IMG/VR virus record: IMGVR_UViG_2684622669_000012
Span: 1 to 15,851 of that record
Direction: 5' to 3' (one strand)
From: a virus
Taxonomy: Duplodnaviria; Heunggongvirae; Uroviricota; Caudoviricetes
Length of the DNA stretch: 15,851 bases
The notes beneath the pieces are model-generated. The model was not told the origin of the DNA. It saw only the letters and a list, made by a program, of their open reading frames with translations, and made no database searches. Of this stretch, positions 4,395 to 6,833 are shown one piece after another. Within the stretch, counting starts at the first letter, position 1; each line of letters starts with the position of its first letter. The translations under genes and the position numbers were made by a program.

Positions 4395-6833
4395 TTAAAA
4401 ATCAGCCTGACTCGGGATCAGTTTTTGCCAGATAGCTGAAACTTGTTTTGCCTGGTGACGTGCATCATCAAGTGCATTGTGGGGTACACCTTCGAATGGA
4501 ATAGCCATTCTGACATCAAAGCCAATGGAATTTCCCAGTTCAACAATTGTGCGCACATCGCGATCGTTGTAGTAACGCCACGGGCAGGGGATCCCCTGCC
4601 GTTCATATGAACGGCGTAAAATCACATTGTCGAAGTTGGCTCCATTTCCCCAGATCTGGACAAAGCTTTCGCCGGAGTTTTCGTTGATAAATTCCCGTAA
4701 TTGCAGTAAAGCGTCGTCTAACGGGATTTCGTCGGTAAAAATGGCAGATTGCGCTTCGCGTGATCGCTTCGCCCACCATTTTATTGTTTTCCGGTCGATG
4801 ATTCCGCCAGATGTTTCCAGATCGATAGCTTTGCTGAACTCTGGCCCCATCTCTCCGGTTTTGGGATCAAAAAATTTACCGCCAATAGAGTTTATTGGCG
4901 CATCAGGATTTGTTCCCATCGTTTCAAGGTCGACCGACAGGTGATTCCATACTCTGCTGGTGGATGTGTCTTTTTGATGACTGTGCACCTTAATTAAGGA
5001 ATTTGTCGTCCTGCCAGTTTTATCACCGCTATCGTTATGCTGATAGTTGTCAGCATCTTCCGGATGCGGATGTCCAGGGCTTTCCATCTCCTCCGGAGCT
5101 TTTTCCTGAGATTCATCGGAATCTTCCTCGCAGAATGTCTCATGGTAAGTTGCGTCACCCATTACTGAGCCACAGTCAGGGCATGTGCCCCCGCCAGTTT
5201 CCCCACAAACATTACAGGGATTTTTCTGTGCATGTTGCGCTGCTGGCTCCGGATGTATCGTTTTTGGTTCATTTTGGTGTGCGTCCTGGCTATTTTGTCC
5301 CGATTCTGGCCTGGTTTGTTCCGCTTCTGGTTGATTCTGGTTCGAAGACTCGCGAGTCTGGATCCCCTTAACCCATTTCGGATCATTCGGGTCGCTAATC
5401 CCTTCAACAAATTCTCCGCGAGAGGCTGCCAGTAATTTGTCTGTGTCGACAGGATTTTTAGGCGTAATGTTTTTCCTGGCTTCATGGAGTTCTGCTCGCA
5501 GTTTCTGATATTTCGCATCAACAGAATTTACCTGTGACTGAGCATCCAGCGGCTGCGTGTCCTGATGATGTTCAGTTGTATCCGGTTCCACTGTTTCAGC
5601 CGTTGCCTGTTCATTTGCCATTGCGCAAGATGGCTGCGGTTTTTCTTCATCATCCTGTTTTCCTTCTTCTGGTACACGCTGCGGCATCGGGGCAGAGGAG
5701 CGGCCACAGGCAATATCCACGATTTCCGGATCAGGGTTGGCATGATCGGTTTCAGTCAGCACCCTGTTCAGATATTCGGTGACACGGTGGGGGGTAGCCT
5801 CTATACCAACTGGTGCTTCTTTTACGGACGCAACCACGATGGCGCGGGAATAATCCAGACCGCCAGGCATGGTGATGAATTTGTCGCGGAAAACAGAAAA
5901 GGGCGGTTTATTTTCAGCGATAATTTCCTCGACACGTTTAGCGTGTGCCGGATGAGGGTTATAAATGTCCACGTCCATTGAACGAGTCAGTACGCCAGTG
6001 GCTACGTCACGAGTCAACGACACTTCATCGTGGACAAAACCTTCGCCGCGGTCGGTAAGAATACCGCCGCCAGCATTAGCACCGGAAGCTGTACGGGAGA
6101 TGTGTGAAACGCGATTTACCTTTATCCACTCCTTTGTCAGCAGACCACGATCGGTGTAGTCAGCACCCAGGTATGCTTCGATGAAAGCGGTCATTAGTCC
6201 CAGGTCTGAATTTACAGGAGCAGGGAAAACTTTGTCAGTATCACGCACCAGTTTGTATAAATCCCGAATCTCAAGCGGTTCGAGTTGCGCTGCTTTATTT
6301 GAGATGGCCAGCACTGTAACAGCGGGAAGTTTTTCTTCCTGTGCGTTATGTAATGCACGAAGTTCGTCCCGTGAAACGTGTGTTACCGGTTTTTCGCTGC
6401 CGTGTTGAGCAAGCCAACGAACGGGCAGTATCTGGCCAGAAATCGGGAGTAGCATACTCTCCTCAATCTCGGCCATGTCTTCGCCGTTGACGTTGGTATT
6501 AGCGGCGTTACTGTTTTCATCGCTGTTTCCGGACGGTACCGACATCATTGTGATGCCATCTTCTCCACCTTTTTCGTAACGGTTACAGAAATCAGTATCA
6601 AATACGCCTTCAGATGGCAGGTCATTCACAACAGGCAAATGGACGCGAACTGTTTTTTTGAAATCATCTTCGTCGTAGCCAGCATCGTCCATAGCGGCAA
6701 TACAGCGGGAAACTGCAACGGAAAGTTTTTTGGCTTCGATCCAGAAAAAGCCACCTTTGATACCGAGGCGCTTTCTGACCTTGTCATTTTTAGCTTCGCA
6801 ATATAGCGCAAACACTTCTTTATTCGTACTCAT
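4395..6833 (-). CDS. Prophage exonuclease: RecE (exonuclease VIII)-like N-terminal/central region fused to a DnaQ-like DEDDh 3'-5' exonuclease C-terminal domain
   Basis: 812 aa from ATG at 6833 (GAGG RBS; ORF track uses TTG at 6836). Central part matches Rac RecE from memory ([41 protein letters not shown]...). The last ~170 aa carry DEDDh motifs: AIDLETSG (DxE), [11 protein letters not shown] (D), HNALDDARH (HxxxxD). Confidence 0.85.

Follow-up and report, generated by a model that had tools for sequence, protein, structure and literature searches.

Among described systems, the gene analysed here is closest to Rac-prophage RecE (exodeoxyribonuclease VIII) and to DexA of phage T4. RecE, which is used as a recombineering tool, has a PD-(D/E)XK 5'-3' nuclease (PF12684, PDB 3H4R). 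A review still lists its N-terminal ~600 residues as a domain of unknown function and credits them with enhancing linear-linear recombination in the full-length protein (PMC11611040). T4 DexA is a 3'-5' DNA exonuclease (PMC12153337), a standalone protein of 227 aa encoded by a lytic phage.

We have analysed a window of 15,851 nucleotides (the whole stretch of DNA under study, positions 1 to 15,851 of the IMG/VR record IMGVR_UViG_2684622669_000012), in which a single gene joins a RecE-type body to a DexA-like DEDDh domain. The element that carries it is probably a lambdoid prophage of Rac-like type in Escherichia albertii, inserted at tRNA-Ser beside mtfA. The features of the locus, in positions of the window, are the following.

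4395-6833, minus strand: RecE-bodied DEDDh exonuclease, complete coding sequence, 812 aa plus stop (ORF list and translation)
6684-6833, minus strand: N-terminal ~50 aa (alignment, blastp domain typing)
4983-6683, minus strand: RecE-homologous body, aa 51-617 (BLASTP, NF007259 profile, alignment)
6273-6671, minus strand: match to PF06630 (Exonuc_VIII), aa 55-187 (Pfam, E 5.7e-27)
5634-6152, minus strand: the body's best-conserved folded core, aa 228-400 (alignment, AF2, dN/dS)
5229-5633, minus strand: acidic, Q/E-rich low-complexity linker, aa 401-535 (translation; relaxed dN/dS)
5172-5216, minus strand: zinc-ribbon-like motif CxxC-x7-CxxC, C540/C543/C551/C554, invariant in the alignment and common to RecE
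4428-4946, minus strand: predicted DEDDh 3'-5' exonuclease domain PF16473, aa 630-802 (Pfam, AF2, Foldseek, DexA alignment)
4929-4931, 4923-4925, 4629-4631, 4479-4481 and 4464-4466, minus strand: catalytic codons D635, E637, D735, H785 and D790, respectively
4337-4394, minus strand: 58-bp intergenic gap, at the position of recT-ralR-rcbA in Rac
4133-4336, minus strand: DUF4224 xis-like gene, directly 3' of the exonuclease gene (Pfam PF13986, E 1.9e-15)
3108-4133, minus strand: tyrosine integrase, prophage end (Pfam)
2966-3055: tRNA-Ser(cga), adjoining the integrase (ARAGORN)

The open frame (4395-6836, minus strand) is intact and starts with the ATG at 6833, with a Shine-Dalgarno sequence, GAGG, 7-8 nt 5' of it. 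A promoter and terminator scan around the gene gave counts at chance level. The identical protein is present in public collections as HEB1167170.1, "3'-5' exoribonuclease [Escherichia albertii]". In terms of gene order, the exonuclease gene lies where recE lies in Rac, 3' of kil and 5' of xis/int, and like recE it belongs to the early-left operon of a Rac-like prophage that encodes Kil and regulators of YdaS/YdaT type. The initial annotation had placed xis and int directly after the gene, and this order holds, with a gap of 58 bp containing nothing but a short inverted repeat before the DUF4224 gene and the tyrosine integrase. Unlike recE, the gene has no recT, ralR or rcbA downstream.

The protein is similar to RecE in the PF06630 region, the core, the acidic linker and the zinc ribbon, with 59-60% identity overall and ~87% in the core. 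BLASTP against RecE of Rac-SA53 showed 60% identity over aa 51-610, and identity approached 90% between about aa 228 and aa 505. The RecE equivalog of NCBIfam, NF007259, aligned aa 1-614 with profile positions 1-602 of 877, and the score of the whole protein, 991 bits, lies below the curated cutoff of 1269 bits. The resemblance to Rac RecE that had been assigned to the central ~400 aa is therefore a true homology whose extent was understated, since BLASTP, profile and alignment carry it over ~aa 51-617. The homology to the RecE proteins of K-12 and Rac-SA53 ends at ~aa 617, where the nuclease region of RecE starts. Within the body, the core (aa 228-400) is mainly helical and shares ~87% identity with RecE and with E. 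coli relatives; the AF2 model of aa 1-400 has a pLDDT of 85.6, and no fold relatives of the body were detected. The N-terminal ~50 aa are unlike the N-terminus of K-12 and SA53 RecE and are common to other proteins with a DEDDh head as well as to some with a PD-(D/E)XK head.

Beyond this breakpoint the protein continues as a DEDDh nuclease, which bears out the domain replacement that had been suggested. PF16473 (Rv2179c-like 3'-5' exoribonuclease domain) matched aa 630-802 over its full profile (1-177 of 177; E 6.5e-62), with 208.8 bits against a gathering threshold of 27. The DxE, D and HxxxxD motifs previously noticed in the C-terminal ~170 aa are D635/E637, D735 and H785/D790, and these residues align with D7/E9/D119/H186/D191 of T4 DexA. 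When the AF2 model of the head (pLDDT 87, pTM 0.83) was searched with Foldseek, T4 DexA was the best match (8KEN/8KEL, E 4e-9), followed by DnaQ, RNase T and Orn (probability 1.00 for DexA and these three), REXO2 and Cap18; PD-(D/E)XK folds were absent among the matches, which comprised DEDDh folds only. DexA, itself a PF16473 protein, was also the sole match in the PDB sequence search. In Pfam, the RecE C-terminal PD-(D/E)XK nuclease (PF12684) had no match in this protein but does match Rac-SA53 RecE and P0260. A canonical RecE C-terminus is ruled out by the Pfam, NCBIfam, PDB and fold searches; domain annotation and structure prediction agree on PF16473 and, as modelled, on a DEDDh rather than a PD-(D/E)XK fold. 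The 3'-5' polarity of the head is predicted from its family membership.

On the other hand, the head differs from T4 DexA, its best match among solved proteins, in that the two share only ~26% identity and DexA has extra loops. The reported 5hmC-recognition residues of DexA are also replaced, W152 by Y755 and D169 by S769, with some uncertainty of alignment in the loop holding D169/S769. Among 17 DEDDh-head cluster representatives, the W152 position is occupied by W in seven, by Y in four and by another residue in the rest, and the D169 position of fused representatives is mostly Ala. The DexA tetramer residue D90 is kept as D707. A few fused cluster representatives are substituted at E637, D735 or D790, so some lineages may be catalytically dead.

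No RecT-type annealase adjoins the gene, in agreement with the initial annotation. In the window, no sizeable ORF matched an annealase family in Pfam, NCBIfam or PHROGs, and tblastn queries with RecT of three types and with a candidate annealase gave no match. Likewise, in the near-complete related prophage ON470580, no annealase is annotated and none was found by tblastn. The 216-aa ORF at 8845-9495 was considered as a hidden annealase and rejected; it matched only phrog_2151 (unknown function) and had no PDB relative. When viral loci were compared, recT lay within 6 kb of none of the 80 DEDDh-head genes, as against 79 of 80 K-12-type RecE loci, and the divergent contexts examined showed no partner gene conserved beside the nuclease gene. 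This contrast supports, on comparative grounds, the altered partner dependence proposed earlier. The adjacent annealase gene of a RecET-type two-component module is absent from this locus. Since the head is replaced and the recT-ralR-rcbA block is missing, we concluded that the protein cannot act as a RecET-type exonuclease/annealase pair.

The gene belongs to a common family of E. coli-group prophages, already catalogued and named "3'-5' exoribonuclease/exonuclease" in public annotation. Of 5426 complete E. coli genomes, 934 have matches covering >=80% of the gene, with up to 9 matching places per genome, and IMG/VR holds ~440 copies. Based on a search of representatives and blastp domain typing, the RecE-type body is combined with a DEDDh head in ~16 clusters at 50% identity and with a PD-(D/E)XK head in ~13. 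Divergent DEDDh-head relatives (35-44% identity) are likewise followed directly by xis/int, and the head swap is an old and widespread lineage, not peculiar to this window. The head also exists on its own, as standalone homologues of 180-190 aa that are 55-87% identical and start within ~5 codons of the fusion point; those of Salmonella are likewise the last gene before xis/int. No similarity was found between the DNA upstream of the fusion point and the 5' region of the standalone gene. The dN/dS ratio is ~0.22 overall, 0.15-0.18 in the head, 0.13-0.27 in the body and 0.42-0.55 in the linker, and 76 of 80 IMG/VR copies are intact. The fusion is real and under purifying selection. Our literature search returned no paper linking Rv2179c or PF16473 with RecE or prophages, and no measured activity, polarity or substrate for any fused member.

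We consider it probable, at roughly two chances in three, that this gene encodes an intact RecE-body/DEDDh nuclease of a Rac-like prophage, which trims DNA 3' ends without a dedicated annealase. Its first module (aa 1-617) is the RecE-type body, consisting of a folded alpha/beta-plus-helical region, the acidic linker and the zinc ribbon, and would supply the same targeting, whatever its nature, as in RecE. Its second module (aa ~625-812) corresponds to the full length of a DexA/Rv2179c-family phage gene that elsewhere stands alone. The DnaQ-fold DEDDh head takes the place of the 5'-3' PD-(D/E)XK domain of RecE. By two-metal catalysis it would release nucleotides from the 3'-OH end of a substrate that is most likely DNA. 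Our best guess is that the protein is made after induction, through the early-left operon, a timing suggested by gene order, and that it trims or degrades linear DNA from the 3' ends. Another prophage could supply an annealase in trans, and this would speak against the reading preferred here.

Kang et al. (2025, PMC12153337) report that EcD, a DexA homologue from E. coli, is an anti-T4 defence nuclease whose cleavage is confined to 5hmC DNA, so the role of the present protein may be defence and not DNA-end processing. In that case the head would destroy modified (e.g. 5hmC) DNA of superinfecting T-even phages, as an inter-phage defence nuclease of HREX/EcD type, and the RecE body would be a targeting or regulatory appendage. 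We regard this as doubtful. In its favour, T4 DexA and this head belong to one family, and among bacteria DexA homologues were reported most often from Escherichia (PMC12153337). Standalone and fused genes both lie at the end of the prophage, where accessory genes are typically located, and prophage DEDDh exonucleases with auxiliary domains can act against phages (TONDO preprint, PMC13344964). The TONDO exonucleases, which combine a DEDDh domain with a non-catalytic auxiliary domain on prophages and plasmids, were, however, found as ISG20 homologues acting on RNA-phage 3' UTRs, and the likeness may be taken as analogy only. EcD itself is probably close to the standalone prophage proteins beginning MIDLETMG..., which are 55-87% identical to this head; it was compared by its description and its primer-derived start, MIDTET, and no protein of the assembled homologue set matched that start. 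The start MIDTET... marks EcD as a short protein that stands alone, distinct from this fusion; in EcD the D90 equivalent is lost (Ala), whereas the 812-aa fusion retains D707 and lacks the W/D pair for 5hmC recognition. PADLOC gave no match. The gene lies in the repressed early-left operon, in which recET of Rac stays silent during lysogeny, and no candidate promoter for the gene alone was convincing.

That the protein is still a recombination exonuclease, working with reversed polarity at double-strand ends and feeding host RecA/RecFOR or an annealase in trans from another resident prophage, seems unlikely to us. The gene occupies the position of recE and retains the RecE body in full, T4 DexA gives 3'-5' resection in intron homing (PMC12153337), RusA is present in a related prophage, and several lambdoid prophages are usual in a genome of the E. 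coli group. However, a 3'-5' exonuclease removes the very 3' tails that RecA and RecT/Red-beta-type annealases use, the 80 loci offered no annealase in cis, and the divergent contexts showed no conserved partner gene nearby. The substrate might also be RNA, because Rv2179c, the name-giver of the Pfam family, is an exoribonuclease. This standalone actinobacterial protein of Mycobacterium tuberculosis, the founder of PF16473, shares its Pfam family and DEDDh chemistry with the present fusion and is reportedly active as an RNA enzyme, a finding attributed to Abendroth et al. in 2014. An exoribonuclease acting on phage or host RNA 3' ends, and not a DNA enzyme, is an improbable identity for this protein, even though PGAP names it "3'-5' exoribonuclease" and RNase T, Orn and REXO2 are among its neighbours in structure. 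The DNA exonuclease DexA is closest by both sequence and structure, whereas Rv2179c structures were not among the best 50 structural matches and gave no PDB sequence match at E 0.01. Moreover, the body, zinc ribbon included, is common to a DNA enzyme, and enzymes of the RNase T/Orn type also cut DNA, the matched RNase T structures being ssDNA complexes. Signs of decay do occur in the family: ON470580 has a split copy, L004 has 2 kb devoid of genes upstream of a 180-aa ORF, two fusions (P0066 and P0079) are truncated and lack DxE, and 4 of the 80 IMG/VR copies are not intact. Even so, it is very improbable that the gene is a functionless, decaying recE remnant of a defective prophage, as the window copy has an unbroken frame and every catalytic residue, dN/dS is low (~0.22, and 0.15 in the head), most copies are intact, and the architecture persists in relatives of only 35-44% identity.

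Annotation labels for these genes are inconsistent ("exodeoxyribonuclease VIII", "exonuclease", "3'-5' exoribonuclease"), and if DEDDh-head genes were counted as RecET, the recombination capacity of prophages would be overestimated. Much of the reported Escherichia excess of DexA homologues may consist of prophage genes, many of them fused to a RecE body, and such a prophage origin bears on the interpretation of the HREX defence idea. At least three heads are found on the RecE-type body, namely a K-12-type PD-(D/E)XK, an SA53-type PD-(D/E)XK and a DexA-like DEDDh domain. The combination of this body with a nuclease of opposite predicted polarity, and with recT lost, provides a comparative handle on the body apart from 5'-3' resection and RecT. 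It is possible, as a tentative view, that the RecE body is an autonomous delivery or regulatory module with interchangeable nuclease heads, and that the DEDDh version is an annealase-independent weapon or counter-weapon and not a recombinase, which might degrade, for example, DNA from rival phages or the DNA/oligonucleotide intermediates that arise in host defence. If this is true, the function of the unexplained two-thirds of RecE could be read from what the three heads have in common.

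We found that the exonuclease ORF is intact (812 aa from the ATG at 6833, with a GAGG Shine-Dalgarno sequence). Its two-module architecture is near certain, while its DNA substrate and role are much less certain. In the N-terminal body, Pfam places PF06630 (Exonuc_VIII) at aa 55-187, and aa 1-614 align to the first 602 of the 877 positions of the NCBIfam RecE equivalog. Because the C-terminal third is missing, the score (991 bits) does not reach the 1269-bit cutoff. BLASTP and a five-way alignment of the exonuclease with K-12 RecE, Rac-SA53 RecE and two E. coli homologues showed RecE homology between aa ~51 and aa ~617, so that the RecE resemblance noticed in the middle of the protein by the initial annotation was borne out over a longer stretch than estimated. 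This stretch contains a CxxC-x7-CxxC motif (C540, C543, C551, C554), invariant in the five-way alignment, and ends where the RecE nuclease region begins (K-12 'EDIEPGIYY...' from residue 593). When aa 1-400 were modelled with AlphaFold2 from 40 diverse homologues, the result was confidently folded (pLDDT 85.6): helical domains come after a small alpha/beta domain at the N-terminus, and disorder is limited to residues 102-110 and 389-400.

In the C-terminal head, the Rv2179c-like 3'-5' exoribonuclease domain PF16473 is matched full-length at aa 630-802 (Pfam, E 6.5e-62). The DxE / D / HxxxxD motifs reported initially are real and correspond to D635/E637, D735 and H785/D790, which align with the catalytic D7, E9, D119, H186 and D191 of T4 DexA, itself a member of PF16473. 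T4 DexA was the sole match of phmmer against all PDB sequences (8KEL/8KEN, E 4e-4) and, when aa 615-812 were modelled with AlphaFold2 (pLDDT 87, pTM 0.83), also the best structural match (E 4e-9); the other DEDDh folds that came next were a DnaQ domain, RNase T, oligoribonuclease, REXO2 and Cap18. The domain annotation and structure prediction proposed earlier for the C-terminus thus returned a DEDDh fold and not a RecE nuclease fold. A canonical RecE nuclease fold, named initially as a refuting outcome, is ruled out by the PF16473 match, the DexA-type model matches and the aligned catalytic residues. Judged from sequence and model, the head bears all the hallmarks of an active DEDDh 3'-5' exonuclease, its closest characterised relative being a DNA exonuclease.

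The Cbl protein (907-1854) matches an E. albertii entry exactly, and the exonuclease is identical to the E. albertii entry HEB1167170.1, catalogued as 'TPA: 3'-5' exoribonuclease'; by these identities, the window can be assigned to Escherichia albertii. The part of the window from 3108 to the right-hand end belongs to a Rac-like lambdoid prophage and comprises its left arm together with the immunity/replication region; the prophage is integrated at tRNA-Ser(cga) (2966-3055), next to mtfA and tRNA-Asn.

Genes of the early-left operon
9816-10205, minus strand, cI-like repressor
9495-9647, minus strand, DUF1391
8845-9495, minus strand, 216-aa protein, family unassigned
7221-8072, minus strand, Ash/Rha regulator
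6954-7175, minus strand, Kil, FtsZ inhibitor
4395-6833, minus strand, RecE-bodied DEDDh exonuclease
4133-4336, minus strand, DUF4224 xis-like gene
3108-4133, minus strand, integrase

As initially read, xis and int come directly after the exonuclease gene. The 58 bp that separate the exonuclease stop from the xis start contain, at 4347-4374 (minus strand), an 8-bp inverted repeat, CCGCTAAC ... GTTAGCGG, whose loop is 8 nt and which lacks a T-run; it may serve in RNA processing or attenuation. The Ash/Rha regulator is one 283-aa ORF with an Ash-family N-terminal region (PF10554, aa 14-109) and a Rha domain (PF09669, aa 120-204), and matches phrog_995. The 216-aa protein has no relative in Pfam, NCBIfam, PADLOC or PDB, its sole match being phrog_2151 (unknown function), and is kept in E. 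coli relatives (hypothetical protein, compared locus L001, 10688-11326). Right of the operon are YdaS-like and YdaT-like regulators, a replication initiator, DUF977 and a hok toxin (Hok/Gef family, 14153-14365, plus strand, prophage right arm; PF01848, E 6e-22).

The absence of an adjacent RecT-type annealase, also claimed initially, held in the window: no ORF matched an annealase family, and tblastn with K-12 RecT, SA53 RecT, L023 RecT and a candidate annealase found nothing. The same four queries found nothing in six independent DEDDh-head contexts. Beyond the window, where a search of the rest of the prophage had been proposed, tblastn was likewise negative in a near-complete related prophage (ON470580, tail genes to int), which is annotated with RusA and without an annealase. 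Among the best 80 of 443 related IMG/VR loci, all full-length fusions, none had the three RecT types or the candidate annealase within 6 kb; in most, the predicted prophage end lies 1.3-2.3 kb downstream of the gene, leaving space for xis and int only. As a positive control, the 80 best IMG/VR loci matching K-12 RecE were examined, and recT was found in 79, the exception being cut by a contig end. The association of head type with recT is complete (Fisher p about 2e-45, a value that overstates independence because many loci are near-identical). Divergent cases agree: RecT lies downstream of the PD-(D/E)XK-head protein P0307, and xis/int lie downstream of the DEDDh-head proteins P0242, P0248 and P0258.

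RecE of K-12 Rac (866 aa) and of Rac-SA53 (1048 aa) share the body, with heads only about 26% identical, and their RecT proteins (269 and 367 aa) show no similarity by tblastn at E 1e-3. Therefore, 'RecET' comprises at least two distinct head-plus-annealase cassettes on one scaffold. In a Salmonella/Escherichia-type prophage contig (AAPWVU010000007.1), a 271-aa protein (L024:8565-9380) lies directly downstream of P0260, a K-12-type PD-(D/E)XK RecE homologue, in the expected recT place. It has no Pfam match and no BLAST similarity to the three RecT types, matches only phrog_3657 (unknown function), and may represent a candidate annealase family.

The RecE-body/DEDDh-head protein is a family and not a one-off chimera. 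Of 5426 complete E. coli genomes, 934 contain a match to at least 80% of the gene's length, with nucleotide identity of about 83%. In O55:H7 CB9615, it has the same mtfA/tRNA-Ser/int/DUF4224 setting as in the window; in strain 155, it lies directly before xis and int, but at another site. Scanning all 1.84 billion cluster representatives with HMMER yielded 10,804 matches at E<1e-3, for the most part to the DEDDh domain. When long representatives were typed by blastp against reference segments, body segments of RecE type went with a DEDDh head in about 16 of the 50%-identity clusters and with a RecE-type PD-(D/E)XK head in about 13, the latter heads being split into K-12 and SA53 types. The Exonuc_VIII and Rv2179c-like pair was confirmed by Pfam in relatives whose identity to the window protein is only 35-44%. 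A full-length homologue (query residues 1-811) in JAGZPX010000007.1, a MAG labelled Veillonella parvula, is most likely a binning contaminant and not a Firmicute copy. Public annotation already includes the architecture, as does PHROGs (phrog_2082 and phrog_20376, 'exonuclease'). E. coli matches are called 'exonuclease', '3'-5' exonuclease' or '3'-5' exoribonuclease domain-containing protein', and phage records often use 'exodeoxyribonuclease VIII'. Our literature search found no paper describing or testing it.

The head also occurs by itself. Standalone proteins of 180-190 aa starting M(NHL)MIDLETMG, 55-87% identical to the head, were seen in E. coli, E. albertii, Salmonella, Citrobacter, Klebsiella, Kluyvera and Enterobacter. 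Similarity of the exonuclease to these proteins (standalone sequence VNNLMIDLETMG) begins within about five codons of the standalone start codon, and the head therefore equals a whole gene. In Salmonella prophages, the standalone gene is likewise the last before xis/int, with RecT not nearby. Some seemingly standalone E. coli DEDDh ORFs are remnants: at L004:6008-8543, a 180-aa DEDDh ORF is preceded, in the place expected for the RecE body, by ~2 kb in which no gene is called, and in P0066 and P0079 a YdfE-like N-terminus (PF27430) is joined to a head without the DxE motif. Standalone counts in E. coli may therefore be inflated by decayed fusions. Two homologue searches gave no protein above 358 aa, though full-length relatives of 800 aa are in the same collection; these searches are unfit for judging architecture.

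At a rough probability of 0.65, we consider that the gene would be expressed with the early-left operon after induction, as gene order suggests, that the body would bring to the DEDDh head the same targeting as to RecE, and that 3'-end nucleotides of DNA would be removed without a dedicated annealase. Decay is very improbable. The window copy is intact with a complete active site, and the ORF reaches at least 780 aa in 76 of the best 80 of 443 IMG/VR copies. Against two E. coli homologues, dN/dS is 0.22-0.24 for the whole gene, 0.15-0.18 for the head, 0.13-0.27 for the body core and 0.42-0.55 for the acidic linker. Broken copies occur as well, and a few cluster representatives carry substitutions at E637, D735 or D790. 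An RNA substrate, to which the exoribonuclease label of PF16473 would correspond, is improbable for a head resembling DexA.

The leading alternative, itself unlikely, is an HREX-type defence nuclease. An E. coli DexA homologue, EcD, is reported to cleave 5hmC DNA only and to protect against T4 (Kang et al., PMC12153337), in a paper mentioning neither prophages nor RecE. However, EcD is short and standalone, starting MIDTET; the reported 5hmC determinants of DexA are not conserved in the window protein (W152 is Y755 and D169 is S769), the tetramer residue lost in EcD is retained as D707, and there is no PADLOC match. Also unlikely, and ranked next, is recombination with reversed polarity, in which the partners would come from the host or act in trans.

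In summary, the window protein differs from RecE in its equivalog score, its head and its want of a RecT partner; it has the defining features of PF16473 DEDDh exonucleases, with predicted activity, and lacks the sequence features stated for HREX/EcD. We consider the most useful consequence to be that this natural head-swap series could help to work out the function of the RecE body.
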